Source: a virus (lineage: Duplodnaviria > Caudoviricetes). Taken from it: a stretch of DNA of 59,591 bases. Of the stretch, positions 1,508-24,184 are shown piece after piece. The stretch is taken from positions 1-59,591 of the IMG/VR virus record IMGVR_UViG_3300049166_000062. One strand, written 5' to 3'. Position 1 is the first letter of the stretch; every line of letters starts with the position of its first letter. Under the pieces are notes generated by a model that did not search any database, was not told where the DNA came from, and was given only the letters and a program-made list of their open reading frames with translations. Position numbers and translations under genes: made by a program.

Positions 1508-1911
1508 CAGACGTCGAATCCCTCCAACCAGAGCCGGTACCGGCGGTCGACTTCATGGAAGGCGGCGGCCGCGGCAGCCTCGTGGTCGAGATCGACCCGG
1601 CTCTTGATGCCGCATTGCTCGCGCAGCCAGATCGCGGCTTCATCGGACGAGCGGACCCCGGCGAATGTCCAGAAGCCCTTTTCGCCGCAGATGATCCCGG
1701 CGCGCTGGGCGAGGGGGCCGCCTTTGCGATCGGCCTCTGGAGCCGGCGTGTTGATTTTTTCGACCGGTTTGGAGGCCGGCGCGACGACATCGATGACGAG
1801 CTGATCGCCCTCCACGCGGATTTGCCAGGAATCGCAGTCGCCGACATCCGGCAGCAGCGCGGAGACAGCATCGGCGATGGTGAAGGTGTGGCGGTGAACG
1901 AGCTGGGTCAT
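1507..1911 (-). CDS. Hypothetical phage protein
   Basis: 134 aa, TGATG-coupled to xis; LREQCGIKSRVDLD motif typical of phage proteins. Confidence 0.75.
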   Translation of the reverse strand: MTQLVHRHTFTIADAVSALLPDVGDCDSWQIRVEGDQLVIDVVAPASKPVEKINTPAPEADRKGGPLAQRAGIICGEKGFWTFAGVRSSDEAAIWLREQCGIKSRVDLDHEAAAAAAFHEVDRRYRLWLEGFDV

Positions 1912-2225
1912 AGACCGACCTTAGTCTCGTGCTTGCCTACCGCGACGGACAGGTCGATCATTTCTGAATGCGACTCACTATTGGAGGTTTGCATGAAAAA
2001 AATCACCGCGAGAAATCTCACACGAGACGAATGGGAGTGGCTGAAACGTCTTAGCGATGGCGGCGTCGCCACTCGGAGGATGACAGCGCAAATGGCGGAC
2101 AGGCTAAAGCGGCTTGGACTGGCTGAGCATTGGAACGGGGGCACTGTGATCAGCCAGGAAGGTAGACGGATCGTCGCCGAGGTAATTGCAAGCCGGAGAG
2201 CCGGAATTCTAGCGTAGGCAGTCAC
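1908..2225 (-). other. Bridge ORF A, antisense to moron 1993-2217
   Basis: GTGA overlap with the stop of 2222-2455 and ATGA overlap with the start of 1507-1911; translation unproven. Confidence 0.5.
1993..2217 (+). CDS. Small opposite-strand moron protein, winged-helix-like (MKKITARNLTRDEWEWL...)
   Basis: GGAGG SD upstream of ATG 1993; 74 aa; oriented against the left operon. Confidence 0.7.
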   Translation: MKKITARNLTRDEWEWLKRLSDGGVATRRMTAQMADRLKRLGLAEHWNGGTVISQEGRRIVAEVIASRRAGILA

Positions 2226-2455
2226 GGCGCGTCCCCGTATTCTTCGGAAACCAACCAGGTCTGGCTATTCGCCGGCAGGCCGAAGAGGCTGTCGCCGGCC
2301 TCCGCGAGACCGCCCTCCCTCTGGACGGCCTGCATGATGGTATCCGGAACGTTCTGGTGCGGCTCCTCGAACCACCACACCCGGCGGCCCTCCAGGAATT
2401 GCATGTGGATCTGATCGCCGGCACGGAGACGGGCGATGACAGCGGCGGTATTCAT
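2222..2455 (-). CDS. Hypothetical phage protein
   Basis: 77 aa, GAGGTG SD, coupled on both sides. Confidence 0.7.
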   Translation of the reverse strand: MNTAAVIARLRAGDQIHMQFLEGRRVWWFEEPHQNVPDTIMQAVQREGGLAEAGDSLFGLPANSQTWLVSEEYGDAP

Positions 2456-2470
2456 ATCGCCACCTCATTC

Positions 2471-2496
2471 GGAACAACGCGTACTCCCGAATGGTT
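2471..2496 (+). promoter_or_regulatory. EcfG/RpoE2-type promoter GGAAC-N17-GGTT
   Basis: GGAAC 2471-2475 and GGTT 2493-2496, 30 nt upstream of ATG 2527. Confidence 0.55.
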
Positions 2497-2526
2497 GTCA
2501 CCAAAACCGACGAAAGGTGAACCGCC

Positions 2527-2592
2527 ATGGCTGATACCAAAAAGAAGGCCGATAGCGATGCGCGACCGAAGAACAAGCCGATCGTCGAGTGA
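2527..2592 (+). CDS. 21-aa hydrophilic micro-protein MADTKKKADSDARPKNKPIVE
   Basis: AAGGTGA SD; lies directly after the ECF-type promoter; below the ORF-track cutoff. Confidence 0.45.
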   Translation: MADTKKKADSDARPKNKPIVE

Positions 2593-2602
2593 AGGACGTC
2601 TG

Positions 2603-2749
2603 ATGCAACATCCGCAACCGATCCCGCCGCAGCCGATTCCGCCGCAGCCAATTCCACCGGACCCATTCCCCGGGCCAGGACCGGCGCGGGATCCTCTGCC
2701 TGAACCGACGCCTCCGCCCGGGCCACGTCCGGTGCCGCCTGTGAGGTAA
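2603..2749 (+). CDS. 48-aa proline-rich micro-protein with PQPIP x3
   Basis: AAGGA SD, ATG 2603; the 15-bp repeat units differ only at synonymous positions, which suggests coding. Confidence 0.55.
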   Translation: MQHPQPIPPQPIPPQPIPPDPFPGPGPARDPLPEPTPPPGPRPVPPVR

Positions 2750-2785
2750 CGATGGACCATGGGGGCGGAGAACGGGATGGGACGG

Positions 2786-3199
2786 TCAGCCACGCTCGCC
2801 TCCCCACCTGATCCCGTAAGCATCGAACGGGAAGAACACATGGCGACTGTCATCGGCGGGGTCATTATCGTAGTCGATCGCCGAGATCAGCTTGAGACCA
2901 TCAACGAACGGCGCGAAGGCGCGGTAGGTGGCGGCGCCGCCGGCGATCCAGAATGGCCATCCCAGGAATTGGCGCTCGAGCAATGCAAGAAACTTGGCGG
3001 GGTCTTCGCGCTGCCAGCACACCAGTTCGCGGCGGGGAAGAACCTGGACCGTTTCCCAGGTGCGGTAGCCGGCGATCACCACACCGCCGATCGTGATGTC
3101 ACGAAACATGCGGAGATCGTGAGGCTCGGCCCACGGCAGGAAACCATCGCGGCCGATCTGGCCACGCTTCCCGACTGCGGCGATGAGATTGACGGTCAT
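2786..3199 (-). CDS. folA: Dihydrofolate reductase
   Basis: LIAAV..GQIG..G.LPW...DL..F...T...VIAGYRTWE and WIAGGAATY motifs. Confidence 0.88.
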   Translation of the reverse strand: MTVNLIAAVGKRGQIGRDGFLPWAEPHDLRMFRDITIGGVVIAGYRTWETVQVLPRRELVCWQREDPAKFLALLERQFLGWPFWIAGGAATYRAFAPFVDGLKLISAIDYDNDPADDSRHVFFPFDAYGIRWGGERG

Positions 3200-4184: not shown

Positions 4185-5401
4185 CAGACCCGCCCCATCT
4201 CGTTGCGCCAGGCATCAGGATCGACGGCGGGCGTGGCCTTCTGCTGATCGGGCGCGCTGCCATTGGCGCGCTTGGCGAGCTCAATCCGCGCGGTGTGGAC
4301 GACATCCTCCCGCTTCGGATCCTGCGGCATGTTCGACTTGTTGACGATCGAGTTGAGGTAGTCCCACGGGATTTCCGGGAACGTCTTGCCGGCGTGCTCA
4401 CCGAAATCAATCTTCCGCAGCAGGACCGGATTGCGCGTGATCTCAAGCATCTCGTCGATGCTGAGCACTTTCAGCAGATCGAGGAGAATCGCCGCAGTAA
4501 CCCAGGTGTCAGGACCGGCGCGGTGGCTGGGTTCCGTACGCGGATCTCCCAGGCAAAGCCCACGTTCGTAGCGGATAGAGCCGTTGCCGTGGCTCTGCAG
4601 GTCGGGCCAGGCGGTGCGGGCGCATTTGAAGGTGCACAACCAAGGGGCTTTGTGACCGCGAATGAAGCGGCCGTCAAAGGCCGCGTTATGGGCGCAGAGT
4701 AGATCTGCCCCTTGCGCAACCAAGGCCCGCGCTTCGTCCGGGTTGATACCTGTCGCGGCTTCCGCCTCGGAAATGTGGTGCACGGCCATCGCCGGGTATG
4801 AAATGGGAATCCCAGGGCTAACGAGGCGGCTATGCGGGCCACTTTCGATGACCCATCCTTCGGGAAACAGCCGAACGTCAGTCCATCCCACTTCCACGAT
4901 CTCTGCCGGATCGTCGATGCCCGTAGACTCGACATCGACCACTCTGATCAAGGTGAGGAGGTCAGCCATTTTGGGCTCCTGAGTCACGGCTACCCATCGG
5001 CCAGCAGCGCCTCGGGTCATGCCAAGCGTCCCGTGCCTTACGATGTCGGCATAGTTGGAGGCATAAGTATCCCAGCGCAGATTGCTTAGGCGGTTGTTGG
5101 AACGGTCACGGTCGCCGTGGCAACCGGCATATCCCTCGGGCTTAGGTCCAATAAACGCGGTCAAAACAACCGAGTGGAGGGCAAACGTTTTTCCGCACAA
5201 GCGGACGGTATAATAGCCGTTTGACCCTTTGCTGGGTGTTAACATCTTGTCGACGGTTGTCTTGACGACCTTGTCGACACGACCATCGTTCAGCTTGCGG
5301 GTGTAGGTGAAAGTCCGCCCGATGCTTCGGACGCGCCCTTCGCTTGAGACTTCGTATCGGCCCTCGTAGCCGACGACAGGACGCCATTGCTCATCAGCCA
5401 T
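4184..5401 (-). CDS. In-frame NUMOD4-HNH endonuclease fused to DEDDh 3'-5' exonuclease (ExoX-like); internal start at 4969
   Basis: WRPVVGYEGRYEVSSEGRVRS (NUMOD4) and CHGDRDRSNNRLSNLRW (HNH), then VVDVESTG, AHNAAFD, HRAGPD (DEDDh). Second SD CAGGAG before ATG 4969. Confidence 0.85.
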   Translation of the reverse strand: MADEQWRPVVGYEGRYEVSSEGRVRSIGRTFTYTRKLNDGRVDKVVKTTVDKMLTPSKGSNGYYTVRLCGKTFALHSVVLTAFIGPKPEGYAGCHGDRDRSNNRLSNLRWDTYASNYADIVRHGTLGMTRGAAGRWVAVTQEPKMADLLTLIRVVDVESTGIDDPAEIVEVGWTDVRLFPEGWVIESGPHSRLVSPGIPISYPAMAVHHISEAEAATGINPDEARALVAQGADLLCAHNAAFDGRFIRGHKAPWLCTFKCARTAWPDLQSHGNGSIRYERGLCLGDPRTEPSHRAGPDTWVTAAILLDLLKVLSIDEMLEITRNPVLLRKIDFGEHAGKTFPEIPWDYLNSIVNKSNMPQDPKREDVVHTARIELAKRANGSAPDQQKATPAVDPDAWRNEMGRV

Positions 5402-6059
5402 TGCCGCCTCCGTCGATGAGTGCAAACAGCGAAGAGGCCGTCGACGCGAAATCGCGGTGCAGGATCGCGACGCCGCCTGCAGCGGTCCACGCGCCTGTGT
5501 TCTTTTCCCAATCATCGATCAGGATGTCACCCGGCGCGTGCATGAACAGCGGCTTGTGACGGCCGCCCATGACAGGGAGAATCGTCGCCGTGAGGGAAAG
5601 ATGCTCGCGCACCCAGTCGCGCTTCTGGCCGGCGACATGCGGGTAATTTGATTTCGGGCAGGCCGTCAGAACAATCGGCTCAAGATGCTCAATCGACCGG
5701 AAGAATTCGACCGCGCCGGCGCAAGGCGGCATATCCCGGAAGTAGGAGGGGTGACCATTGATGGTCGACCACATGTCGTCATCAGCTAGACCGCGGTGGT
5801 CGAGCCCGAACGTCGCCGGGAAATGGGCGTCGAAGTCAGCCATGACGCCGTCGAGGTCCAGATACACTCGGCAGGCTGACGCCTCATCCGCCTCACGCTC
5901 GAGACGGCTAAGCAAGATCCGGAGTTCGTCCGACTTGCGGATCGTCTCTCGCGAAATCAGGCCGCCGTTCCCGCCCCGGCCGTCGATACCGCTGTCATCG
6001 AACGATACCGCATCGATAAGTTCTTGGGCTGCGCGCACGATATCCTGAATGGTCTTCAT
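5394..6059 (-). CDS. HAD-family 5'(3')-deoxyribonucleotidase with N-terminal extension
   Basis: VYLDLDGVMADF, VLTACP, K..WV, ILIDD motifs. Confidence 0.85.
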   Translation of the reverse strand: MKTIQDIVRAAQELIDAVSFDDSGIDGRGGNGGLISRETIRKSDELRILLSRLEREADEASACRVYLDLDGVMADFDAHFPATFGLDHRGLADDDMWSTINGHPSYFRDMPPCAGAVEFFRSIEHLEPIVLTACPKSNYPHVAGQKRDWVREHLSLTATILPVMGGRHKPLFMHAPGDILIDDWEKNTGAWTAAGGVAILHRDFASTASSLFALIDGGGNG

Positions 6060-6933: not shown

Positions 6934-8106
6934 TCAGCCCTCCTCGCCGGGTTGCCTTTCGGCGTCCCCGGTGTCGAAGCCAGCCAGGTAGGCCTCCATC
7001 AGCTGCTCGTCCTTTCGGAACTCCGCCGGCATCGCCTTGCGGCTCATGCCTTTGTGGCGAGCCTCGGCGCCGCGCTTCCTGGCTTCGGCATAGAGATCGC
7101 CGTCGCCCGACGGGGAGGAGGATTCGCCGGGCGACGGCTGTTTGGCGGTGTCAGCGGGGGAGGAGGTTTCCGCTTTGCCGCCTTCATCGGAGCCCGGGGA
7201 GGAGGTCGGGTCCGATTTCTTCGCCGCGTCACCCTTGGGCTGGTCGGCGGTTTTTTTCTTGTCCTCACCTTCACTGGCGAGCTGATCGAGCTTTCCCTTC
7301 AGATCGGCCGGCTTATCGCCGGCGGGCTTCTGAACCGGGAACATCTCCTCGACGGTCGCTTCGCCGCTCTTCAGAGCGGAGTGCATGCCGATCAGGGTCG
7401 ACATGTGTTCGAGCGTGATATCGTCGAGGCCGTTGATCTCCAGAACCGCGAACACCCGCTCCGGGGTGACGCCGAAGGCCGCGAAAGCCTTCATGGCTTC
7501 GGCGCGACGTTCCACCAGCGTCTTGATGTCCCCAGCGATCACGCGCTCAACCGCGGTATAGGCTTTGCGCCAGACCGCCTTCGGGACGCCGCCCAGGATC
7601 GCGTTGCGCTTCGCGATCGACGACGCCGCGTTGCCGGTAACGATGATCATGTCCTCGGTGAGCAGCCGGCCGCCCTTGTCGGAGATCCGCCGGCGAACTC
7701 GGGATGTGATCGCGGCGTTGGTCTCCAGATCATGGAAGACCCCCTCGGCCTCGACATACTTCTCGATCTTGTCGACATGCACGATGCGGGTGCCGACCCG
7801 GTTGTTGCCCCATTGGGATTGGATGATTTCGGCAAGCCGGATCGATGGCCCCTTGATCGGTTTCCCACCGCGCGGCAGCGCATAGACGCATTCCGCTGCG
7901 GTTTCCTCGTCGAGCGTGGCGAGCGTCAGGATGTTCTTCACGGCCTGGTCCACGCTGCGCGGGTAGGCGTGTGCTGTGGTAACCTGCTGGTCGACTTCCG
8001 CCATGGCGATCGAGACCGCCAGGCTCTGGTTGCCGGTCTGGTAGCCGGCAGGCAGGCCGCTGATGACCTCGCCAGTCTCGCTGTCGTGGGGCGTCATCTC
8101 GTTCAT
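6934..8106 (-). CDS. Conserved phage protein, putative single-strand annealing recombinase partner of YqaJ
   Basis: AYPRS...YALPRGGKPIKGPSIRLAE...WGN motif; CAGGAG SD; sits in the usual RecT/ERF slot. Function is inferred. Confidence 0.6.
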   Translation of the reverse strand: MNEMTPHDSETGEVISGLPAGYQTGNQSLAVSIAMAEVDQQVTTAHAYPRSVDQAVKNILTLATLDEETAAECVYALPRGGKPIKGPSIRLAEIIQSQWGNNRVGTRIVHVDKIEKYVEAEGVFHDLETNAAITSRVRRRISDKGGRLLTEDMIIVTGNAASSIAKRNAILGGVPKAVWRKAYTAVERVIAGDIKTLVERRAEAMKAFAAFGVTPERVFAVLEINGLDDITLEHMSTLIGMHSALKSGEATVEEMFPVQKPAGDKPADLKGKLDQLASEGEDKKKTADQPKGDAAKKSDPTSSPGSDEGGKAETSSPADTAKQPSPGESSSPSGDGDLYAEARKRGAEARHKGMSRKAMPAEFRKDEQLMEAYLAGFDTGDAERQPGEEG

Positions 8107-8136
8107 GGTCGTCTCCTGTGTGGGAATGCGAAAAGG

Positions 8137-9069
8137 TCAGGCCGCGCCTGCCTTCTTGATGCGGACATCGATGTAGCTGGTAGGCTTGACCTCGTAGCCG
8201 GCGCGCTCGACTGTCTTGGCTGTAATCACGCGGCCGTCAGCGATCCTGGCGGCTGAGGCACCGGCCATCTTGTCGAGCAGCTCGGCCTTGATCTCCTTGA
8301 GCCGCTTTTCGATGACGCCCTTCTCGGAGGCGATCCGGGCCTTCTCGTCGCAGATCTCAGGCAGCATGTTGTCGTTGGACAGATCGACGATATTCCCGTT
8401 GGGCTCGTACAGTTCCTCGATCAGGGCACCATCGCGCTTCCAGTCGGCGTCGGGGTGGCCGCCGGCTGCGGTCACGCGCCAGAAATCCGCGACTTCGCCG
8501 CGGATGCGCCTCATCAGGTCCGGCACAACCGGGATGTCGATCATGTGAAGTTCGATGCCGCGACCGACGACCAGGAGCGCAACCATGGCGTACGCCGAGT
8601 TCGTCAGGTCCGCCTCGATCGTTGCCTGGACGGCCACCCAAAGCGGTGGCGTGATCTCCTTCGTCTCCGGGTCGATCCACTGCTTGACGCTGAAATCGGA
8701 GGCGGTCTTGATCTGTATGATACCCTGGCCCTTCCGGTCGGGGCGGCGAACGAAGCAGTCAGGGGTAGCGCCCAGACGGGCACCCGGATCGCGGAAATAG
8801 CGGTTGTTGAAGCTGTGCGTAACCTTCCAGTCGGGATGGTCCTCGCGGATCATGTCTACCGCTGCGTATTCAAGAACGCGGCCGCGCCGCAGGACGGGGT
8901 TGTCATCGTCCTCGGCACCCTTGCGGCCGGTCTTTTCCGCCCAGAGCTCGAAAGCCGAAGTGTAGGGATGAATGCCTAGAAGCGCCGCAGCGGTGCTGGC
9001 GGTCACGTCCTTTGCCCGGGCCGCAAGCCACTGGGCGCGATCGGCGGGGCGGATGATCTCGACCGTCAT
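8137..9069 (-). CDS. yqaJ: YqaJ / lambda-exonuclease-family recombination nuclease
   Basis: WLAAR..VTAS..AALLG..PY.S..ELW.EKTG, RG..LE, LGATPD, IQIKT. Confidence 0.9.
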   Translation of the reverse strand: MTVEIIRPADRAQWLAARAKDVTASTAAALLGIHPYTSAFELWAEKTGRKGAEDDDNPVLRRGRVLEYAAVDMIREDHPDWKVTHSFNNRYFRDPGARLGATPDCFVRRPDRKGQGIIQIKTASDFSVKQWIDPETKEITPPLWVAVQATIEADLTNSAYAMVALLVVGRGIELHMIDIPVVPDLMRRIRGEVADFWRVTAAGGHPDADWKRDGALIEELYEPNGNIVDLSNDNMLPEICDEKARIASEKGVIEKRLKEIKAELLDKMAGASAARIADGRVITAKTVERAGYEVKPTSYIDVRIKKAGAA

Positions 9070-11239: not shown

Positions 11240-11263
11240 CAGAGTTCCTCCTCCTCGCGGCGT

Positions 11264-11527: not shown

Positions 11528-11571
11528 CGGTTTGGCTCCCAGTTGGAGCAGCATCTGTGCTCCAATGCGGC

Positions 11572-15230: not shown

Positions 15231-15252
15231 AGCCAACGAAAGGCATGTCTCC

Positions 15253-15747
15253 ATGGCCAAGATTCATGAGCGTCCGAACAGAGCGTCGCCGAGCGAAGCG
15301 GCTTCGTTCGTCGAGGAGGTCGATCGGCTGGAGCAGGGGCGCGAGGAGCAGCTTCGCGTCCTCGATGCCGAGTTCAAGGTGAAGAAGCGCGCGATCAACA
15401 AGAAGGTCAACGACGACCAGAAGGCCATCCTCGCCGATGCCAAGAAGCAAGGCGTCAACAAGGGCGTGATCCGCGCGCTGGCGGACGGCCAGGCCGGTAT
15501 CCGCAAGGCATCGGAAAAGCTGGAGACGGCGCGGGAAAAGGCGAGCGACCGGCTCGACGGGCTGGAGGATGAGGACCGGGATTATGCGGTCGATATCCAC
15601 AAGGCCTTGGGCGTCGACTTCGCCAGCTTCGGCCTCGGGGCTGCAGCGGTCGAGCGCGAAGAACCCGCTCCCGCGAATGGCGTCGATCCTATTGCTGCTG
15701 CGGCTGAGAAGGCTTGGACCGAAGCAGCGCCTGCCGGCGCGGACTGA
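15253..15747 (+). CDS. GapR/DUF2312-like nucleoid-associated protein (divergent, extended)
   Basis: SFVEEVDRLE...DQKAILADAKKQG.NK.VIR...ALG pattern. Confidence 0.55.
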   Translation: MAKIHERPNRASPSEAASFVEEVDRLEQGREEQLRVLDAEFKVKKRAINKKVNDDQKAILADAKKQGVNKGVIRALADGQAGIRKASEKLETAREKASDRLDGLEDEDRDYAVDIHKALGVDFASFGLGAAAVEREEPAPANGVDPIAAAAEKAWTEAAPAGAD

Positions 15748-15825
15748 TTCAGAGGGCGGAGAGACGCCCGCATAAACCGCCCGCGACGGGCATGCAACGA
15801 CCGGGAAAAACCGGCGAGAGAGAAT

Positions 15826-16509
15826 ATGGGCATCACCGTCCTCGGCCTGGATATCGCGACCTATTGCGGCGTCTGCTGGAAAGAGGCGGGCGTGCCGGCC
15901 TCTGACTGGCGCTGCTATGTCATCGAATCCGAGGGCGACAATTCCGAGGACAAGGCCGGCGATCTTGCCATGGCTCTCGCCGGCGAATTCAAGACCAGGC
16001 GACCCGACTTCGCGGCTATCGAGATGCCGCAGCGCAGCGTCACCCAGTTCGGCAAAGAGGGTGATGACGGCGAGCGCAAGCAAACCATCAACCCAAACGC
16101 CCTTCAACTCTCCGGCCTCGCCGGTGGTGCCGTGGCATGCCTTGATCTGCACGGCATCCCATGGGGGTTGGTGGCGCCGTCAACATGGCGATCTGCCTAT
16201 TTCGGCAAAGGATACAAGCCGCTGATCGACTGGAAGCAGTCAGCGATCGACATGGCGAACATTCAGAAGATCGTGCTGCCGCCTACAAAGAAGGCGCAGC
16301 GCGACGCGGCGGAGGCCGTCGGCATTTCGGTTGCCTGGGAGCGCTGCACCTTCGTGCCTGAACGCCACCAGCGGGCGTTCATGGCGCTGCGAACCGGCAG
16401 GCAAGGCGAGGCTGGACCGATGCCCTCATTCGCCAGCCGAGAGGTCGTACCGCCGGAACAACAGCTCGCCGCCCGAAACGCCGAACAACCCCTGCCAGAG
16501 AGGTTTTGA
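15826..16509 (+). CDS. RuvC-like Holliday junction resolvase
   Basis: VLGLDIAT, AAIE, PSTWR, RDAAEAVGI. Confidence 0.75.
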   Translation: MGITVLGLDIATYCGVCWKEAGVPASDWRCYVIESEGDNSEDKAGDLAMALAGEFKTRRPDFAAIEMPQRSVTQFGKEGDDGERKQTINPNALQLSGLAGGAVACLDLHGIPWGLVAPSTWRSAYFGKGYKPLIDWKQSAIDMANIQKIVLPPTKKAQRDAAEAVGISVAWERCTFVPERHQRAFMALRTGRQGEAGPMPSFASREVVPPEQQLAARNAEQPLPERF

Positions 16510-16510
16510 G

Positions 16511-16831
16511 ATGTCCGATTTCAATCCCGGCCAGCTTGTGGAGTGCGTCGACGACGGGTTCCGATTCATCCCAACGGAGCCGTCAGGCCTGAAGAAGCCG
16601 AGGCGTGGAATGGTCTATCGGATCCGCAGCATTGAGGTCTGGCCAGTCCGAGAGCGCGGTTGTGACGTCCAGTTCATCCGGCTCGACGAGATCCGGAACC
16701 CATTATTCTCGACCAAAAACTTCGGCATGCAGGAGCCGGTGTTTGAGGCCAGCGCCTTCAAGCCGCTCTCCGATAGCCGGCTCGACGTCTTCCACAAAAT
16801 CGAGGCCTCGATCTGGAGGACGCCGGCATGA
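16511..16831 (+). CDS. Hypothetical protein
   Basis: GAGG SD; F.PGQLVECVD...YRIR...FKPL motif. Confidence 0.7.
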   Translation: MSDFNPGQLVECVDDGFRFIPTEPSGLKKPRRGMVYRIRSIEVWPVRERGCDVQFIRLDEIRNPLFSTKNFGMQEPVFEASAFKPLSDSRLDVFHKIEASIWRTPA

Positions 16832-17199
16832 GGCGCGCCCGCCATTCCATGCCGTTGTGCTCGGCAGTCGGTCTCACCATTGCGGCGATCGCGGTTATCA
16901 TCGCCATCATGGCGGGGATCGACGAGGCCCAGCCCCATGAGGCTGAGCCCACAGCTGCGCAGCCGCAGGGGTGGTCTTATCCGTTCTCGTGCTGTTCAGG
17001 TTACGATTGCCGCGCTGTCCCGGCCGACTGGGTGAAGGAGAGCTCGAGTGGCTTTCGCATCGTCATCACCGGCGAGATCGTCGGCTATTCCGACACCAGA
17101 CTGAAGGACAGCCCGGACGGCGATACCCATTGGTGCTCGGTCGCTGGCGCAAATGACGGCCGCACGATCTGTCTCTTCGTTCCGCCACGGAGCTTTTAG
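16828..17199 (+). CDS. Exported/membrane-anchored Cys-rich protein
   Basis: Hydrophobic N-terminus; WSYPFSCCSGYDC...SPDG..HWC...ICLFVP. Confidence 0.75.
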   Translation: MRRARHSMPLCSAVGLTIAAIAVIIAIMAGIDEAQPHEAEPTAAQPQGWSYPFSCCSGYDCRAVPADWVKESSSGFRIVITGEIVGYSDTRLKDSPDGDTHWCSVAGANDGRTICLFVPPRSF

Positions 17200-17201
17200 C
17201 C

Positions 17202-17936
17202 GTGCGTACGCTGATCTACTGCCCGCACCCAATGCTCGAGGCCCGCTACGGTGTCGTTGCCCGCACAGCCGGCATGGAGCCGATCACAGCGGCCCGGCAT
17301 CAGGAGTTCGGTTCTGCTCTGTTCAGGGACCCGGAATCGCTCGGCATCCTATGGGCGGTGGGCGAATCCTCCGCCGCCTATACCGTCCGCGATTACCGCC
17401 GGGCCGATATTCGAAACCTGCTCATCGTTTTGCTCGAGGAGCAGGGTTCTGCTGAGCGGAGAGGCGAGGAGAGGGCCCGCGTCCTGATGGCCGGCGCCGA
17501 CGACGTCCAGCCCGATACCATCGATCCCCTGGAACTCTGCGCCCGCCTGAAGATGCTGCGAGACCGCGGCGCTTACGTCGATCACCAGCGCATTGAGCTA
17601 CCGGGATGCGTCTACATCGACGCCCTGAAGGCGATCGAGACGTCGACCGGTGCCGTGAAGCTGTCGCCGAAGGTGGGCGATCTCCTCGTCGCCCTTGCCC
17701 GTCGTCCGGGTATGACCCGCACGAAACAGCAGCTGATGGACGATCTCTACGGCGGGACAAAGGAGCCGGACATCAAGATCGTCGACGTTCTGATCTGCAA
17801 GCTTCGCCAGAAGATCATGAAGGCTACAGGCGGGCTCGACTGCGTCCAAACGATCTGGTCGCGAGGGTATCAATTTATCCCGGAAGGTTTCGTCCCCGTG
17901 ATTTCCGAAGCTCGGAAGAGGGCGGTGGCGGGATGA
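17202..17936 (+). CDS. CtrA-like OmpR-family regulator with degenerate receiver
   Basis: LYGGTKEPDIKIVDVLICKLRQKI...QTIWSRGY matches the CtrA DNA-binding domain; GADD present; acidic pocket absent. Confidence 0.8.
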   Translation: MRTLIYCPHPMLEARYGVVARTAGMEPITAARHQEFGSALFRDPESLGILWAVGESSAAYTVRDYRRADIRNLLIVLLEEQGSAERRGEERARVLMAGADDVQPDTIDPLELCARLKMLRDRGAYVDHQRIELPGCVYIDALKAIETSTGAVKLSPKVGDLLVALARRPGMTRTKQQLMDDLYGGTKEPDIKIVDVLICKLRQKIMKATGGLDCVQTIWSRGYQFIPEGFVPVISEARKRAVAG

Positions 17937-18073
17937 CTATCGGAATCGGCTTCTCCAGCGTGTTCGCCATCCCGTTTGCCTTGAGCGTCATTCATGATGA
18001 CAACTGGCGGGAAACCTGCGTCGCCCTCCATTTCGGGCCGTTCATCGTTGACGTGACCTGGGGGTGGTCGTGA
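17933..18073 (+). CDS. Small hypothetical protein
   Basis: 46 aa, ATGA/GTGA-coupled. Confidence 0.5.
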   Translation: MTIGIGFSSVFAIPFALSVIHDDNWRETCVALHFGPFIVDVTWGWS

Positions 18074-18561
18074 CGGACGAGCCGCGCGCCATCCGGGACA
18101 TCCTCGCCGAATGCCTCCGCCGCGAGAGGCTGGGATTGATACGCCCATTGTGGGCCGACTGGAGCCGCGTTGACGACGCCTCCTGCGAACAGGTCCGCCT
18201 CCGTGCCGATCATCTGATCCGCCTCCTCGCCGATCTAGGCGTCGAGCTCGTCCAGACCGGTGAGCCGAAGGCGGTGGAGCGTCCCGACAGCGCGATTGTG
18301 ATGCGGTGCCCACTCGCCGGCAATGCCGCCACGGAACGCATGATCAGGTGCGCCAGCGACCGCTGGGAGATCGCTACCATAACGGCCGGCGTCGAGACGG
18401 TGGAGCAATCCTTCACCCTGACCGAGGCCATGTTGAACGCCGGTCTTGTCCTCTCCGATGATCCCGAGGCGCGCACGATCCCGGCGCTGGGCCGGAGGCT
18501 CGCCGCAGTTACCGAAATCTACCGTCTGAACGCCGCGACCATGCCGGAGACTGGCGAATGA
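18070..18561 (+). CDS. Hypothetical protein
   Basis: Coupled on both sides. Confidence 0.7.
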   Translation: MTDEPRAIRDILAECLRRERLGLIRPLWADWSRVDDASCEQVRLRADHLIRLLADLGVELVQTGEPKAVERPDSAIVMRCPLAGNAATERMIRCASDRWEIATITAGVETVEQSFTLTEAMLNAGLVLSDDPEARTIPALGRRLAAVTEIYRLNAATMPETGE

Positions 18562-18740
18562 ATGCCGGCATCGGCCGCCTCCATCGCGAGCTCGTCGACG
18601 GACTGGCGACGTTCCAGGCCGATCTGTTGCGCCGCGCGGCCGGCGAGATGGCCGACGCGCTGGATCGAGACGCCATGCGGGACATCGAGGGCGCCAGCGA
18701 CTGGCGCGACCCACGAAGCAAAAGGAGACAGCAGTCATGA
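18558..18740 (+). CDS. Hypothetical protein
   Basis: 60 aa, ATGA overlaps at both ends. Confidence 0.6.
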   Translation: MNAGIGRLHRELVDGLATFQADLLRRAAGEMADALDRDAMRDIEGASDWRDPRSKRRQQS

Positions 18741-18988
18741 AGAACAGACTGACGGACCTCAACGATCACCTGTTCGCACAGTTGGAGCGGCTCTCGGAGG
18801 AGTCCCTGACCGCGGAGCAGATCGAAACCGAGGTGAAGCGAACGGCCGCGATGGTCGATGTCGCTGACAAGATCGTCGACAACGCCCGGCTAGGGCTTCA
18901 GGCCGCCAAGCTGGTTGCCGACCACGGCGACCGCTTCCGAAAAGACCTGCCGATGCTCTCCGCCCCCGCCGTGGAGGGCAAGGCGTGA
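18737..18988 (+). CDS. Conserved phage protein (MKNxLxDLNxHLFxQLERL family)
   Basis: AAGGAG SD; this family typically precedes an HNH gene. Confidence 0.8.
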   Translation: MKNRLTDLNDHLFAQLERLSEESLTAEQIETEVKRTAAMVDVADKIVDNARLGLQAAKLVADHGDRFRKDLPMLSAPAVEGKA

Positions 18989-19638
18989 AGGGTCGCCAGA
19001 TCCGCTACAGCGAGGCGGAACTCGCCTTCATCGAATGGCGGCAGGCGATGAGCCGTCGTGCCCTGCACGCGGCCTTCGTGGCTGAGTTCGGGCGCATCGA
19101 TATCAAGGTCGACGACATCAAGTCGCTGTGCACTCGCAAGGGCTGGAAGACCGGGCGCGACGGGCGCTTCGATAAGGGTGCGGTGCCGGCGAACAAGGGC
19201 AAGAAGATGCCCTACAACGCGAATTGCGCCCGCACACAGTTTAAGAAGGGCAACCGAACCGGCCGGGCTAACCATGTCTACAAGCCGATTGGTAGCGAGC
19301 GCATTTCAAAAGATGGCTACCTGGAGCGGAAGGTTCATGATGGAATGCCGCTGCAGTCTCGGTGGCGCATGGTGCAGCACATCCGCTGGGAGGAGGTCAA
19401 TGGGCCGGTCGCCGCCGGATATGTGCTGAAATCGCGAGACGGCAACCGTCAGAACACAGACCCATCAAATTGGGAACTGGTCCCGCGCGCCATCCTGCCG
19501 CGCCTCAATGGCCGTTTCGGCCGCGACTACGACAGCGCTCCATCTGAACTGAAGCCGACCATCATGGCCGTTGCCAAGCTGGAACATGCCGCGCGCAGGA
19601 AGGCCCGCTCCCGCCCCGATGAAAGGTCGTCAGCATGA
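18985..19638 (+). CDS. HNH-signature protein with FxKG repeats
   Basis: GRFDKG..P.NKGK, TQFKKG, KPIGSER..KDGY, WEEVNGPV...DGNRQN...SNWELV. Confidence 0.8.
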   Translation: MKGRQIRYSEAELAFIEWRQAMSRRALHAAFVAEFGRIDIKVDDIKSLCTRKGWKTGRDGRFDKGAVPANKGKKMPYNANCARTQFKKGNRTGRANHVYKPIGSERISKDGYLERKVHDGMPLQSRWRMVQHIRWEEVNGPVAAGYVLKSRDGNRQNTDPSNWELVPRAILPRLNGRFGRDYDSAPSELKPTIMAVAKLEHAARRKARSRPDERSSA

Positions 19639-19655
19639 CGACCGTCCTGCAAGCC

Positions 19656-19949
19656 TTAGGCAGCCGTCCAGTTGTCTGTAGCCTGGCGCTCACTCCGACC
19701 CGGCATGTCCGAAACCAGAATGCCGGCGGCCCGGGCAAACGCTTCGAACGTCTGCCGCGCCGTCTCGTCATCACATTCGCAGGCCAAGGCAGCCCGACAG
19801 GCATCAATAGCGGCCTCGTGCGTAGGGCCGCGGCCTCCCGAAGGCCAATCATTCAGCAACTCAAAGGCTGCCCTCGCACTTCGAATATCGTGGGCGAACC
19901 CGAGTCCAATGAGGATCGATACTGGCCGGGAGAATTGTCTGCTCTTCAT
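19656..19949 (-). CDS. DUF982 family protein (copy 1)
   Basis: F.RPV...IRS...A..LL..WP...G....A...C..AL...AR..F..FA..AGIL. Confidence 0.85.
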   Translation of the reverse strand: MKSRQFSRPVSILIGLGFAHDIRSARAAFELLNDWPSGGRGPTHEAAIDACRAALACECDDETARQTFEAFARAAGILVSDMPGRSERQATDNWTAA

Positions 19950-19959
19950 GATGATCTCC

Positions 19960-19984
19960 AACGAGCGAGCGCAAAGATAGTTGC
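19960..19984 (-). promoter_or_regulatory. EcfG-type promoter GCAAC-N16-CGTT
   Basis: One mismatch to consensus; 10 nt upstream of ATG 19949. Confidence 0.55.
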
Positions 19985-20078
19985 CAGCAATATGCACGGA
20001 GCGCTCGGCCAGGTGCGATCCAGCCCTTCGGTGCAGTACCTTCATGCAAATGTTGGATTAGGTGTGTCGGCCGTGCTT

Positions 20079-20333
20079 TCAGCGCGGGTCGGCATCAATC
20101 AGGATACCCGCCTCCCTTGCGGCGGCTACGAATGCCTCTCTGGCATGATCTGGCGGCTGCTCGTTCTTCAGAACGGCGATGCAGGCCACGCGAGCCGCCC
20201 GATGCTCAGCGCCACCAACTGTCGGCCATTGGTAGAGCAGCCATTGCGCAGCGGCACGCGTGGAACTGATCACACGGAATTTGCCAGCTGCTTCGACCCG
20301 CACAGGCTTGGTCCAGTACATTTCCCGCAGCAT
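20079..20333 (-). CDS. DUF982 family protein (copy 2)
   Basis: WTKPV...ISST..AAQWLL..WP...A...C...AREAFVAAAREAGIL. Confidence 0.85.
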   Translation of the reverse strand: MLREMYWTKPVRVEAAGKFRVISSTRAAAQWLLYQWPTVGGAEHRAARVACIAVLKNEQPPDHAREAFVAAAREAGILIDADPR

Positions 20334-20339
20334 GAGGGC

Positions 20340-20642
20340 TCACCTCGCCGACCTCGCCCAATCGTCGGCTTCCCGCAATCTCGGCAGCGGCTCATCTCTG
20401 GCCAGAACACCAGCAATCCGGGCGAACGCCGCCAGGGCCTTTCGCGCTTCTTCGGCCGGGCCCTCATCGATTGTAACGGCGAAGCAGGCATTCAAGGCCC
20501 GTTGGAAGATCGGGCTGCCCCGCGCCGCCGCGGGCCAGTTCTGAAGAAATGTGAGCGCTTCCTCAACATCGTAGATTTCGGTCACCGGCTCACCGGCTTC
20601 GGTCACGATGCGCACCGGCAGTGGAAACTGCATTCTGTCCAT
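20340..20642 (-). CDS. DUF982 family protein (copy 3)
   Basis: GGAGG SD; FPLPV...I.DVEEAL.FL..WP...ALNAC...ARKA..AFA..AGVL. Confidence 0.85.
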   Translation of the reverse strand: MDRMQFPLPVRIVTEAGEPVTEIYDVEEALTFLQNWPAAARGSPIFQRALNACFAVTIDEGPAEEARKALAAFARIAGVLARDEPLPRLREADDWARSAR

Positions 20643-20836
20643 CGATCGCCTCCGGGCAGCTTAAGCCGCCTCATGATCATGGAAGCATACTCCTTGCGTG
20701 TCCGGGACATCAAGCTGGCTGACCTACCGCGCTGGATCATCCATCGTCTCGGATACGCCAATCTTCGCAAGGTCGAGAAATGCGCCTTCGTCGCGCTGAT
20801 CGCCAACGAACCTCCCGAAACTGAAAGGACACCGAC

Positions 20837-22678
20837 ATGACCTTGCAGACGCGAACGGTCGCGCTCGCTGATCTCGAGCTCGACGACGACATCAACGCCC
20901 GTCGCCATCGCACCGATGAGGGTATCGAAGAACTGAAGGCATCGATCCGCGCCCATGGCCTCGTGCAGGCGCTGCGCGTGCGCCCGACCGGAGCCACCGG
21001 CAAGTTCAAGATCGTCGCCGGCAGCCGTCGCTGCCGGGTTCTGTCGGAATTGTGCACCGATGGCGACAGCGCCGCCGGCGTCCAGGTGACACCGGAATTC
21101 CCGGTGCCGGTGATCGTAGGTGACGATGACGACCAAACCGCGCGCGAGCTCAGCCAGGCCGAGAACTTCATCCGGCTCCCCCAGCACGAGGCCGACACCT
21201 ACGAGACTTTCCGGGAACTCGCCGATCGCGGTCTCGATGAGGCGCAGATCGCCGCCCGGTTTGGCATCGATGTGAAGCGCGTGCGCCGCATGCTGGCGTT
21301 GGGGCGGTTGTCGCCGATGATCCTGGGGGCGTGGCGGGACGGCAGTCTCGACGAGCGCGGCCGTGCCTTTGAGACTGTCCGCGCCTTTACGCTGGCGCCG
21401 ACGAGGGAGGATCAGGAGCGTGTTTTCACGAGGTTGGTGAAGGACCGCAATCTGCATAGCGGCGCAGTGCTGGCCGCGTTCGGCGGCAACGATCACAACG
21501 CCGCCAAGCACATCAAGATCGCCGGGCTGGAGGCTTATCGCGCTGCCGGCGGGCAGGTGACACAGGATTTGTTCGGCGACAACCACATCATCGCCGACAA
21601 AGCCCTTGCCCAACGCGTGGCTGAGGAAAAGATCACGGCTACGCTCGCCGGCCTGAAGGCTGAGGGCTGGGCGTGGGTCAGCCTTGCGTCCGACCTGCCG
21701 TATTCGTGGCACTATAGCTGGAGCAAGCTGAAGCCCGGCGACGGCAAGCCGACTGCAGACGAAAAGAAGCAGATCAAGAAGCTGCAGAAAGCGGTTGCCA
21801 AAGGGACCGACGGTGCCGCCGACGAGCTCGCCACCCTACAGAAGGCAGTCGTCGATCGGCAATGGAATGCGGACCAGCTGAAGACCGCCGGCGCTGTGCT
21901 GGAGATCGGGCACCATGGCGATCTCACTGTCACCCGCGGCGTCGTGAAGCCCGGCGCAGACAAGAAGGCGGCGGCCAAGACTGAAGGCCCGACAGAGAAG
22001 GTGGCTCCGACGATCTCGCAGGCGATGGTGCACCGGCTGTCCATTCAGGCCACCATGGCGATGCGGACCGCGCTCGGGCAAGAGCCGCGCCTTGGCCTCA
22101 TTGCGCTGTTGGCCGCCTTGGCGGCGAAGCGATCGATGTACGACACCGGCCGGGATCGCCCGGTTCGTGTGCTGCATGAGGGCCTGGGCTGGCAAAAAGA
22201 GAATGAGAACGGAGCCAGCTTCGAGAACGCGTTCAAGGCCATTCGCGAAGCTGCTGACGACGAAGAACTTTTCAGGATTGCGGCAGGCATCGCCGGGCGA
22301 GCCGTCGACCTGCAGCACACTTCGTTCCAGAAGGGCGGCGGCGCTCTCGCCGCCGCGATTGACGCGGACCGCATGAATGCCGCGCTGCGCGAAGCCTTTG
22401 ACGCCGTCGACTATTTCAACGGTGTTGCCAAGCCATTCGTGATCCAGGCCATTCGCGAAGCCGTTAACGAGGATGAAGCCCGCAAGGCGGAGAAGCTGAA
22501 GAAGAAGGAACTCGTCGAGTTCGCGGCCGCCAACGTGCCGCAGACAGGTTGGTTGCCGCCAGAGCTCCGCTGCGCGACCTATTCGGGGCCGGGGGAGGTA
22601 CCGAAGCCCTCCGAAGCGCCGCCCCTCGATCCCGACCTCGATGCGATCGAGGACAAAGAGCTGGACGAGGTCGCCTGA
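20837..22678 (+). CDS. parB: Long ParB/Spo0J-family protein
   Basis: IEELKASIRAHGLVQAL.VR, IVAGSRR, AENFIR, IAARFG HTH. Confidence 0.85.
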   Translation: MTLQTRTVALADLELDDDINARRHRTDEGIEELKASIRAHGLVQALRVRPTGATGKFKIVAGSRRCRVLSELCTDGDSAAGVQVTPEFPVPVIVGDDDDQTARELSQAENFIRLPQHEADTYETFRELADRGLDEAQIAARFGIDVKRVRRMLALGRLSPMILGAWRDGSLDERGRAFETVRAFTLAPTREDQERVFTRLVKDRNLHSGAVLAAFGGNDHNAAKHIKIAGLEAYRAAGGQVTQDLFGDNHIIADKALAQRVAEEKITATLAGLKAEGWAWVSLASDLPYSWHYSWSKLKPGDGKPTADEKKQIKKLQKAVAKGTDGAADELATLQKAVVDRQWNADQLKTAGAVLEIGHHGDLTVTRGVVKPGADKKAAAKTEGPTEKVAPTISQAMVHRLSIQATMAMRTALGQEPRLGLIALLAALAAKRSMYDTGRDRPVRVLHEGLGWQKENENGASFENAFKAIREAADDEELFRIAAGIAGRAVDLQHTSFQKGGGALAAAIDADRMNAALREAFDAVDYFNGVAKPFVIQAIREAVNEDEARKAEKLKKKELVEFAAANVPQTGWLPPELRCATYSGPGEVPKPSEAPPLDPDLDAIEDKELDEVA

Positions 22679-22944
22679 TCGTCATGCAGTTGATTTTGCC
22701 CGACAAGGATGTACGCCTCGATCGCGGCATCAGCGAATGCCTTTCTGGCCGCTTCAGCGGAAACATGCCCCTGGATTGCACCTCGCAGGGCTCTGTCCGC
22801 CATCGAAGACATCGGGCCGGCACGGTTCGGCCATTTGTCGTTCGAAAGGCACTTCATCGCTTCCCAAACGGTGTGGACCAGGCGAGTTTTGCCGGCCTTG
22901 CCGAAGCTGATGCGAACCGGACGATCAAAGCGGATCTGTTTCAT
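22579..22944 (-). CDS. DUF982 family protein (copy 4); C-terminus runs 100 nt into parB
   Basis: FDRPV...VHTVWEA..CL...WP...ARKAFADAAIEAYIL. Confidence 0.8.
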   Translation of the reverse strand: MKQIRFDRPVRISFGKAGKTRLVHTVWEAMKCLSNDKWPNRAGPMSSMADRALRGAIQGHVSAEAARKAFADAAIEAYILVGQNQLHDDQATSSSSLSSIASRSGSRGGASEGFGTSPGPE

Positions 22945-22954
22945 GGCGTAGTCG

Positions 22955-22979
22955 AACGTGTTCCTCTTGCGGAAGTTCC
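22955..22979 (-). promoter_or_regulatory. EcfG/RpoE2 promoter GGAAC-N16-CGTT
   Basis: Perfect consensus 10 nt upstream of ATG 22944. Confidence 0.75.
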
Positions 22980-23001
22980 AAGAATAAAGGCCGGAGGAGA
23001 C

Positions 23002-23301
23002 TTATCGCTTCCGCTTGATCCTGTTTGGCATCGGCACGCGGTCCACGTCGCCGATCAGTATACCGGCTTCCTCGGCGGCCTCGCGAAAGGCCTCGCGCGC
23101 CGCCGCTGCCTTGCGCTGGCCTTCCAGCGCGTCAAGGCAGGCTTTGCGAGCCGCACGGGCCTTGGCGGTGTCGATCTCCTTCGGCCATCTGAAGAGCAGC
23201 CATTCCGCCGCCTGGCGGGCGCTGGAGACGTTCTGGCGCTGGCCGCGCGGCGCCTTCACCGTCACGAACTCGTTGAAGGGCCTATCGTCAAGCCTGGCCA
23301 T
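23002..23301 (-). CDS. DUF982 family protein (copy 5)
   Basis: VSSARQAAEWLL..WP...ARKACLDAL.G....AREAF.EAAEEAGIL. Confidence 0.85.
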   Translation of the reverse strand: MARLDDRPFNEFVTVKAPRGQRQNVSSARQAAEWLLFRWPKEIDTAKARAARKACLDALEGQRKAAAAREAFREAAEEAGILIGDVDRVPMPNRIKRKR

Positions 23302-23331
23302 CTTAGACGCCCTGAACACGCACCCGGCCTT

Positions 23332-23356
23332 AACGCTACATCGGCTTCACAGTTCC
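23332..23356 (-). promoter_or_regulatory. EcfG/RpoE2 promoter GGAAC-N16-CGTT
   Basis: Perfect consensus 30 nt upstream of ATG 23301. Confidence 0.75.
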
Positions 23357-23375
23357 CGGCAAGCGGGGCAGCATA

Positions 23376-23651
23376 ATGGCCGCCGCCGTCGACTTCCGCG
23401 GATCGAATTGGTTCCTCGGCCCTCCAACAGGGGCCGAGAACGTCGAGGGCATGCACACCTTCACCAATGGGCATTGCTCGGTTTCCTGCTGGGAATTCGA
23501 CGATGCCGAAATTGAAGAGATCGTCCGCACCCGTCGCCTCTTCATCAGCGTTCATTCCGGCCGCACCCAGCCGCCGGTCTTCGTCGCTCCGGAGACCGTC
23601 ATGCGCGGCTTCCTCGTCGACTACGGCGGGACGTGGAGGGTCGATCGGTGA
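23376..23651 (+). CDS. Hypothetical phage protein
   Basis: VDF.GSN..LGPP...SCWE...E..EI.RT......TQPPV motif. Confidence 0.75.
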   Translation: MAAAVDFRGSNWFLGPPTGAENVEGMHTFTNGHCSVSCWEFDDAEIEEIVRTRRLFISVHSGRTQPPVFVAPETVMRGFLVDYGGTWRVDR

Positions 23652-24184
23652 TTTCAGCTAGGCACGCCGTCCGCCGGCTGAGATGCGATCATCCAGGGCA
23701 TGACAGATTCAGATTCCTCCAGGATGTTGGCTCGTTTCGCAAAGTCAGCGAATGCCTTGCGAGCCTCGCTCATCGGAAATCGTCCATCATGAGCGGCGTG
23801 ACATGCCCGGACCGCTGTCTCGTGTATGAGGTCTTGGAGCTCTTCTGGCCACTCCATGAGAAAATCGACGGCATCATCCAAGGATGCAATTTCCCTCACG
23901 AGAAAGGTGCCCTCCTTCACGAAAACGGGGCCGTCAAACATCATGCTGTTCATAGTCTCCTCCATGTCTGTGAACGCGTTGGATATGCTGAGAAGGCAAG
24001 CGCGCCAGCGCGCTGCTTCAGCAAAATGTGTTGTCGAATTTCGCGGTATTCAAGGGGGCGTTCAGCTGTGACGCGCGGCGATGGACAGCATGGTCACGCA
24101 TGCCTCCGCGCGATGAAGGGTGTAATTCGCGGCAACCATCTGCCTTTATCCGCCATGCCTTCAGCAATGGAGGCAAGTCGATGA
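23648..24184 (+). other. Bridge ORF F (178 codons), antisense to DUF982 copy 6
   Basis: GTGA overlap with the 23651 stop; ATGA overlap with the 24181 start; codon-registered. Confidence 0.55.
23654..23953 (-). CDS. DUF982 family protein (copy 6)
   Basis: GGAGGAG SD; FDGPVFV...IASLDDAVDFL.EWP...ACH.A.DG..P...ARKAF..FA....IL. Confidence 0.85.
   Translation of the reverse strand: MNSMMFDGPVFVKEGTFLVREIASLDDAVDFLMEWPEELQDLIHETAVRACHAAHDGRFPMSEARKAFADFAKRANILEESESVMPWMIASQPADGVPS

Follow-up and report, generated by a model that had tools for sequence, protein, structure and literature searches.

Stop-free operon-strand reading frames across backward genes in the early operons of a temperate Mesorhizobium phage

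The virus record IMGVR_UViG_3300049166_000062 (Duplodnaviria; Caudoviricetes), analysed here in its entirety (positions 1-59,591, approximately 62% G+C; hereafter the window, or W when it is compared with its relatives), belongs to a temperate Mesorhizobium phage whose early operons are interrupted by islands of genes lying backwards, that is, on the strand opposite to the operon. Islands of this kind are crossed on the operon strand by a single stop-free open reading frame (ORF), here called a bridge, tied at its ends to the operon genes on both sides. At four islands, C to F, the bridges run over eight backward genes (the cargo) that family matches and homologues mark as real, namely six DUF982 genes and the paralogues C1 and C2. 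Judging from the sequence comparisons described below, it is somewhat probable that selection holds the operon-strand frame free of stops across this cargo, likely for the sake of translation itself, with a product that is not conserved.

Bridge frames and backward cargo

The first-pass annotation had listed seven bridge ORFs, A to G, and the coordinates and overlaps of all of them were reproduced from the sequence. Bridge C (13364-14236, + strand, 290 aa) starts with an ATGA shared with the stop of the cro-position gene (13119-13367), crosses C1, C2 and a hairpin, and ends 43 nt inside the next operon gene (14194-14598). Bridge D (19635-20840, +, 401 aa) has ATGA at both ends, its ATG overlapping the TGA stop of an HNH_3 endonuclease-like gene (18985-19638), and crosses three DUF982 genes. 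Bridge E (22684-23376, +) begins after a 5-nt gap behind the stop of a ParB-like gene at 22678, crosses two DUF982 genes and finishes in a TAATG shared with the gene starting at 23376. Bridge F (23648-24184, +) opens with GTGA, crosses one DUF982 gene and a 215-nt spacer, and closes in an ATGA with the ATG at 24181, a start required for this overlap and confirmed by homologues. Stop/start overlaps such as ATGA and TAATG mediate translational coupling in operons, and those with which the bridges start, and mostly also finish, are of the same 4-nt or 1-nt kind as those between ordinary neighbours of this operon. Upstream of the GTG of bridge F there is a GGAGGG at 7 nt; by eye, a Shine-Dalgarno motif is present at F and weak at D (AAAGG).

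The exact codon-to-codon register claimed for C to G follows from the coordinates (C1, C2, D1-D3, E1, E2, F1 and the antisense ORF of G), and at islands A and B the bridges are not in register with the antisense ORFs. Of the six early-operon islands originally claimed, C to F hold supported cargo genes, whereas the cargo of A and B is unverified.

All six DUF982 genes, which lie on the - strand, exceed the curated cut-off of 22.2 bits of the Pfam family (PF06169), with 47.7-68.1 bits and E-values from 1.5e-12 to 6.5e-19. Island D contains D1 (19656-20045, E = 6.8e-17, with the domain at residues 40-110 and a likely start at 19949), D2 (20079-20333, 6.5e-19) and D3 (20340-20642, 1.5e-12); island E contains E1 (22579-22944, 2.9e-16) and E2 (23002-23319, 3.6e-18); and island F contains F1 (23654-23965, 6.6e-17). 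E1 overlaps the oppositely oriented ParB-like gene by 100 nt (22579-22678) at that gene's 3' end and so acquires a low-complexity tail, and its homologue in M. alhagi likewise overlaps its own ParB fragment. Directly upstream of E1 (22955-22979, -) and E2 (23332-23356, -) there are matches to GGAAC-N-CGTT, which we take to be the EcfG-type general-stress promoter pattern. Across the genome this pattern shows no enrichment (3 matches vs 1.9 expected), and the two sites are compatible with cargo promoters of their own that would fire against the operon.

C1 (13379-13621, -, in an ORF that extends to 13660) and C2 (13694-13942, -, 82 aa) are small conserved proteins, paralogues of about 80 codons with 47 database homologues, all of them annotated as 'hypothetical' and lacking Pfam domains; PHROGs gave no family for C1 or C2 either. 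C1 varies most at third codon positions. In Rhizobiales prophages these genes adjoin the cro-position gene, on the repressor's strand. The ESM Atlas places C2 in unnamed clusters, with a weak DUF3467 lead (0.85) that was left unused, and relatives of C2 were found neither by a metagenome scan with a C2 alignment nor by a single-protein scan of viral contigs.

It had been cautioned in the first-pass annotation that GC-rich DNA makes long in-register shadow ORFs common, and this caveat is fair, as codon bias by itself frequently leaves in-register antisense frames without stops. The bridges exceed such shadow ORFs. When synonymous codons were resampled from the phage's own usage and the spacers shuffled, with phases kept (3000 trials per island), the bridge was open in 1.5% of the trials for C, 0.9% for D, 8.7% for E and 4.4% for F, which gives a joint probability of 5e-7. 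The null thus did not yield bridges at a rate similar to that observed.

The interior of the islands points in the same direction. TTA, CTA and TCA, the three codons that cargo must avoid if the bridge is to stay open, are absent from the 1390 codons (129 Leu, 57 Ser) of the C-like genes of 11 distinct loci, against 9.0 expected, and from the 610 codons (37 Leu, 37 Ser) of the six DUF982 genes, against 4.2 expected. The C-like genes do use other rare codons (CTT, TCT and AGT), and their third positions differ between loci at about half of the sites. The spacers behave likewise: the C2-C1 spacers, taken from seven distinct islands, have no stops in 278 bridge-frame codons, as compared with 9 and 7 in the two remaining frames; five W-like phages have none in 415 codons over the 250 nt that follow C2 (12 and 3), and the spacers of D, E and F have none in 178 codons (9 and 4), the spacer of bridge F by itself having none against 3 and 2. 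Since the spacers are non-coding, codon bias cannot account for a stop-free bridge frame there. The proposal that register and openness persist across the spacers of multi-gene islands holds, with 0 stops in the bridge frame from C to F. Taken as a whole, these comparisons give good support at island C, and reasonable support at islands D-F, to selection that keeps the operon-strand frame coupled and open.

Island C and its hairpin in related prophages

Island C was followed through IMG/VR phages and through genome searches at the genus level (3 of 202 genomes matched) and the family level (4 of 300), giving 15 loci, 12 of them distinct. Labels of the types G006, G007 and L0xx denote the related phages and loci compared with W, and G001-G005 denote host genomes. 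The recurring module consists of a repressor, a cro-position gene, one or more backward C-like genes and the next operon gene; in L068, one of the 15, the C-like gene points the same way as the genes around it. In none of the 15 loci does a stop interrupt the in-register frame anywhere across the C-like island. In each of the ten two-gene islands detected by model (seven distinct), both genes lie in one frame, with stop-to-stop distances of 312-429 nt, to which L066, read by hand, adds 291 nt. A readthrough fusion of C2 and C1 was considered as the origin of the shared frame and rejected, because a second in-frame stop lies between the genes in nine of the ten.

The ends of the bridge are also retained. 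The bridge ATG and the preceding stop codon share nucleotides in 13 of 14 loci (ATGA in ten, TAATG in three), distant prophages of 56-58% G+C included, and a GAGG, GGAG or AGGA stands, by eye, 4-11 nt upstream of the ATG in 11 of 13. A bridge extending to the next called gene is seen in 12 of 14 loci, L076 and L077 falling short; the 3' junction is an ATGA in L078 and L066, a 1-nt gap in L067 and an overlap of 8-43 nt in W, G007, G006 and L070.

The protein that the bridge would encode is not constrained. Among 842 codons with a single difference, 588 are synonymous in the C1/C2 frame vs 96 in the bridge frame, and between W and G007 the bridge is 32% identical while the cargo reaches 48-52%. 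Thus, the first-pass annotation was right to predict openness without amino-acid conservation in homologous islands, which were not found broken on the operon strand. True dual coding, in which the bridges would encode functional proteins overlapping the cargo on the opposite strand, as antisense overlapping genes reported from E. coli and Pseudomonas do, might be suggested by conserved ORFs that have start codons and mostly Shine-Dalgarno motifs, by positive bridge coding scores in L076 (31) and L069 (15), and by reports of translated long antisense ORFs (PMC9927249; bioRxiv 10.1101/2021.02.09.430400; as far as the available text of these sources goes). Nevertheless, substitutions in the bridge frame are almost all non-synonymous, and the bridges of this window have negative codon-usage coding scores (that of bridge D among them) and no Pfam match, a PHROG search of A, B and C giving no family either. 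Moreover, cargoes as unrelated as DUF982 proteins, C-like proteins and the membrane-like protein of L009 described below imply that the bridges cannot share a product. We therefore regard dual coding as highly improbable. The reverse assignment for this island, with bridge C as the real gene and C1 and C2 as its shadows, was ruled out by codon-position counts.

Just past the C2 stop, on the cargo strand of the C2-C1 spacer, the motif GGAAACCAT (variants GAGAACCAT and GTTCACCAT) is conserved, at 13677-13685 in W and at counterpart sites in G007, G006, L070, L071, L077 and L078; it may be a promoter or a binding site for C1. The ATG that it contains on the + strand is off the bridge frame in W (worked out by hand).

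Inside bridge C, 55-130 nt past C2, two stem-loops followed by a U-rich tract (13998-14070, +) resemble a terminator, with a G+C-rich stem directly followed by a U-tract on the transcribed strand. The z-score of the hairpin ranges from -3.0 to -4.2 on the + strand and is -0.8 on the - strand. An alignment of seven sequences (five distinct), with counterparts at L053:14965-15070, L047:15375-15480 and L070-L074:2350-2470 (-), has 20 predicted pairs and one compensatory CG/GC change, at columns 54/84. The U-tract is canonical (U7) in G007 and L070, where it reads ACUUUUUUU, and interrupted in W and G006. Rfam gave nothing at the gathering score in the whole window and only a chance-level match near island C, and a simple terminator scan found none at this island, since its loop limit was 8 nt and the loop of the hairpin exceeds it. 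In islands D-F the + strand has a single weak terminator-like site (22815-22832).

The hairpin thus looks like an intrinsic terminator that bridge ribosomes would read through. The cassettes had been described in the first-pass annotation as polarity-proof; with a conserved terminator-like hairpin inside bridge C, the operon is not simply termination-proof. A refinement for this island is that the bridge acts as a long leader-like ORF, on which a ribosome stops the hairpin and U-tract from terminating the rightward transcript, and that converging C2-C1 transcription or its RNA could block that ribosome, shutting off the delayed-early genes. Such a translation-gated terminator would agree with stem-loops and a U-tract conserved on the operon strand within the bridge, with one compensatory pair, with a bridge that, in each of the five W-like phages, runs through the hairpin without a stop (0 in 415 codons), and with C2 and C1 converging on the cro-position gene from the repressor's strand. 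It is nonetheless an unlikely account: L066, L077 and L078, with their short gap behind C2, have bridges but no hairpin, W's own U-tract is interrupted, the element was not flagged by the simple scan, and islands D-F offer just the one weak site.

Displaced genes and the case for chance

The ends of bridges D-F can be traced to genes that the cargo has displaced. The DUF982 islands are missing from most relatives, and blastn homology with these stops at 19595, 22607-22687 and 23651 and resumes at 20704, 23388-23411 and 24158-24181. In the slot of island D, the relatives carry a second HNH_3-type paralogue (L001, L006 and L007, about 5170-6004), a gene of 285-290 aa (L005 and L009) or one of 670-700 aa (L002-L004). 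A 3' relic of the displaced 285-290 aa gene persists in W (20704-20836, +; 63-64% identity to L005 and L009 by tblastn), ending ...ETERTPT. It supplies the tail of bridge D, whose last 133 nt are this 3' end, with its stop over the ATG of the ParB-like gene; the genes upstream of ParB in relatives end in ...ER(T/S/I)PT or similar, with the stop in the same position. The ATG of bridge E occupies the start position of the 23376-type gene in L003, L004 and L009. The GTGA of bridge F is the junction that in L003 joins 23376 directly to 24181, its GTG being the start of the downstream gene there. The downstream ATGA motifs are the conserved starts ATGACC (ParB-like gene) and ATGAAC (24181).

Taking into account these relics, the coupled ends, which the first-pass annotation held to be the informative part, are largely remnants of displaced genes rather than newly evolved signals. 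As the coupling signals are inherited, it is the open, in-phase interior that needs explaining.

Other islands repeat the arrangement. The E1-E2 pair of L011, a decayed M. alhagi prophage, lies under an open frame of 280 codons, and the DUF982 pair of L040 is bridged. At the island E site of L009, an Aminobacter prophage, a different backward cargo of 231 aa (7827-8588), membrane-like by eye, lies under an in-register ORF of 253 codons, which begins with the first 11 or so residues of the displaced gene (a relic N-terminus) and ends 74 nt before the next gene.

Several observations weigh against selection for openness. The ends, being inherited from displaced genes, are not independent adaptations, and the C-family loci share descent, so that the probabilities given above overstate independence. 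Of 410 single genes in six related phages, 169 (41%) have no stop in the in-register antisense frame, and the same is true of 26 of 37 chromosomal DUF982 genes. Tandem chromosomal DUF982 pairs share a frame in six of ten cases (a hand count, with one third expected), which suggests that the shared frame may have arisen neutrally. Homologous islands were not found for D and F, and one was found for E. In W, bridge C has no clear Shine-Dalgarno motif and that of bridge E is 14 nt away. Moreover, 10 of 12 antisense islands in five relatives have no open frame, as judged with crude gene calls from a simple codon-usage score; these ten include well-scoring genes within late operons (G007 10133-10948) and, possibly, an island in the left early operon of G006 (7872-8168). 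In W the island 29141-30819, where early genes give way to terminase, is unbridged too.

These unbridged islands are mostly in late modules or at the early/late boundary, and two of them, over the tail-chaperone frameshift region, are probably miscalled. The first-pass annotation had proposed that antisense cargo is kept only when the sense strand stays ribosome-covered. That frames are kept open beyond codon bias stands; 'only when' is too strong, because ten of the relatives' islands and 29141-30819 are unbridged.

As regards the chromosomal genes, the five host genomes G001-G005 have 12-22 DUF982 matches each, and in the same-frame pairs that were fetched (L026, L030, L040 and L041) one antisense frame is open across both genes. 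An antisense frame running from neighbour to neighbour is rare at chromosomal DUF982 genes (one of six islands and three of 21 other contexts), which sets the bridges further apart from the baseline of open single-gene frames. A pseudo-island control on runs of two and three genes gave 5.5% and 0.6%, values biased low because ATGA overlaps force neighbouring genes into different frames, and only the single-gene figure was used.

The foregoing would allow chance and history to have produced the pattern, GC-rich shadow ORFs having become aligned with relic start and stop signals without any selection for openness. This is favoured by the high baseline openness of in-register antisense frames, by ends that are relics or conserved second codons (ATGACC and ATGAAC occur in all relatives), by the prevalence of unbridged islands in relatives, by the sharing of a frame between tandem DUF982 genes in chromosomes too, and by the pattern having been picked post hoc from a very large scan. 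It is hard to reconcile with a null of only 0.9-8.7% per island, with spacers that are stop-free in the bridge frame alone, with no TTA, CTA or TCA against 9.0 expected in 11 distinct C-like loci despite their third-position divergence, and with 15 of 15 loci open and an ATGA/TAATG start kept even at 56-58% G+C. Thus, we consider this explanation quite improbable for the islands in general and very unlikely for island C.

Proposed role, operon setting and known systems

Selection for a translatable operon-strand frame would have acted on islands that arose as follows. Accessory genes were presumably inserted backwards into slots of non-essential genes of the early operons, the two C-like genes by the cro-position gene and the six DUF982 genes in the neighbourhood of the ParB-like gene. 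With each insertion the start codon of the displaced gene would have stayed behind, coupled to the upstream stop, and in D its 3' end as well, the cargo sitting in shells of older genes. Selection would then hold the frame from the relic start to the next gene free of stops by three means: cargo that avoids TTA, CTA and TCA, tandem cargo genes that share one frame, and spacers that are stop-free in that frame. Ribosomes ending on the upstream gene would restart on the bridge, follow RNA polymerase across the cargo and hand translation over to the next gene. The benefit might be an early transcript shielded from Rho-dependent polarity, together with less decay and less pairing with the converging cargo transcript, and at island C translation of the bridge would enable polymerase to get past the terminator-like hairpin.

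That the bridges are translated, and for what reason, is what we infer from these patterns; taking ribosomes over 0.5-1.2 kb of backward DNA appears to be their sole purpose. Rho (PF07497) was found once in each of three genomes carrying related prophages. As to rut-like (C-rich, G-poor) RNA, the GC skew of the + strand is -0.06 to -0.13 over island D, which is C-rich, and near 0 over most of E and F. A wider rule can be conceived, by which backward genes in the early operons of temperate phages must be ambigrammatic so that ribosomes stay on; at island C, as part of the lysis-lysogeny switch, the 290-codon bridge would carry polymerase through the terminator and the C2-C1 transcript would block its translation to shut off the delayed-early genes. 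In this general form the proposal is doubtful.

The islands of the leftward operon are less clear. Bridge A (1908-2225, -, 105 aa) shares a GTGA with the stop of 2222-2455 and an ATGA with the start of 1507-1911, and its frame contains a single stop, the one that ends it, compared with 5 and 7 in the two remaining - strand frames. Its candidate cargo (1993-2217, +, 74 aa) is weakly supported, with one 95%-identical homologue and no Pfam or PHROG match. Bridge B (2452-2793, -) overlaps 2786-3199 by 8 nt and shares an ATGA with the start at 2455, and its antisense micro-ORFs gave no Pfam or PHROG family and no homologue. In relatives, the slot of A is taken by a longer homologue of 2222-2455 and that of B by another gene; bridge B is possibly the shell of an ancestral gene. 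A 15-nt tandem repeat inside it (2612-2659, 3.2 copies, consensus CCGCAGCCGATTCCG) reads GGIGC three times on one strand and PQPIP three times on the other. The gene upstream of bridge B (2786-3199, -) begins MTVNLIAAVGKRGQIGRDG...LPW and looks, by eye, like a dihydrofolate reductase. A + strand ORF at 10794-11195 was considered as a seventh island and rejected as a shadow, because the PHROG match there belongs to 10728-11573 (-). In the late region, bridge G (38822-39061, +) overlaps 38185-38838 by 17 nt, ends 14 nt before a likely start at 39075 and is in register with an unverified - strand ORF (38819-39178).

With respect to the surroundings, a CI-type repressor (12392-13024, -; Pfam HTH_3, 3.7e-16, and Peptidase_S24, 2.2e-10) lies between the two operons, the leftward one running from 13024 down to 1 and the rightward one starting at 13119 and encoding GcrA-like, HNH_3, ParB_N and AAA_25 proteins. 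The cro-position gene (+), first of the rightward operon, has a 64% identical homologue in G006 and no Pfam match, and its TGA stop overlaps the ATG of bridge C. The next operon gene (+), which starts within the end of that bridge, is 79% identical in G006. The HNH_3 gene that precedes bridge D is likewise on the + strand. The ParB-like gene (20837-22678, +) encodes a ParB_N-domain protein of 613 aa with homologues in 11 loci. The small gene between islands E and F (23376-23651, +) has 74% identical homologues in L003 and L004, and the conserved gene 24181-24468 (+), which starts ATGAAC, contains the TGA that ends bridge F. Prophages related to W were found in genomes of Mesorhizobium and Aminobacter as well as among IMG/VR records; GenBank phages gave no megablast match to 12000-25000 and no tblastn match to the DUF982 gene D2.

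A full-text search of the literature found no paper on such bridges in DNA phages. The closest described case seems to be that of the ambigrammatic narnaviruses, in which a conserved, stop-free reverse ORF is codon-aligned with the RdRp gene and translation of the reverse frame itself is thought to matter (DeRisi et al. 2019, PMC6884476; Retallack et al. 2021, PMC8316113); the polymorphism of genetic ambigrams has also been treated (PMC8155312). As far as the available text of these papers goes, narnaviruses resemble the bridges in having an opposite-strand frame in exact codon register, in the removal of stops by avoiding three codons in the real gene, and in ribosome cover of the RNA as the proposed function. 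Register, codon avoidance, conserved openness and an unconstrained reverse protein, the marks of an ambigram, are all found at island C. Within the same limits, the differences are that narnaviruses are RNA viruses of eukaryotes, while the bridges are in a bacterial DNA phage, lie on the operon (mRNA) strand, cross inserted cargo, promoters and spacers, and are linked through stop/start overlaps with the real genes that flank them. The benefit envisaged also differs, being resistance to Rho polarity or termination for the bridges and genome protection for narnaviruses.

A parallel for the polarity argument is offered by the immI region of phages P1 and P7 (icd-ant, with the c4 antisense RNA), for which Biere, Citron and Schuster reportedly described a Rho step in 1992. 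In P1, icd is apparently required for ant expression (PMC8201110). Judging from the part of that source at hand, immI shares with the proposed role of the bridges the need to translate an upstream ORF in order to reach a downstream gene, and the possibility that an antisense RNA gates it. Unlike a bridge, icd is a short ORF with a functional protein and does not run antisense through other genes, nor is there in immI a stop-free frame across foreign cargo. Ordinary operon coupling uses the same overlaps, but the bridge is a unit without a conserved product. The antisense overlapping genes cited above likewise comprise long in-register antisense ORFs; in the available text they are argued to be selected proteins within one gene, whereas the bridges have an unconstrained protein, span several genes and their spacers, and it is their operon position that is conserved.

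If the proposal is correct, the bridges would represent a class of conserved DNA-phage ORFs whose sole selected property is translatability, unseen by homology searches and dropped by gene callers as shadows. They would explain how cargo expressed in the lysogen can lie head-on in essential lytic operons without breaking them, and would offer a sequence-level test for transcription of a given region as a single operon. With stop codons that leave the product of the cargo gene unchanged, they would also serve as a simple bench system for transcription-translation coupling and Rho polarity in alphaproteobacteria. The islands also suggest how such cassettes originate, with cargo inserted into the remains of an earlier gene, and draw attention to a conserved module next to cro, composed of C1, C2, the bridge and the hairpin, in the prophages of Rhizobiales.

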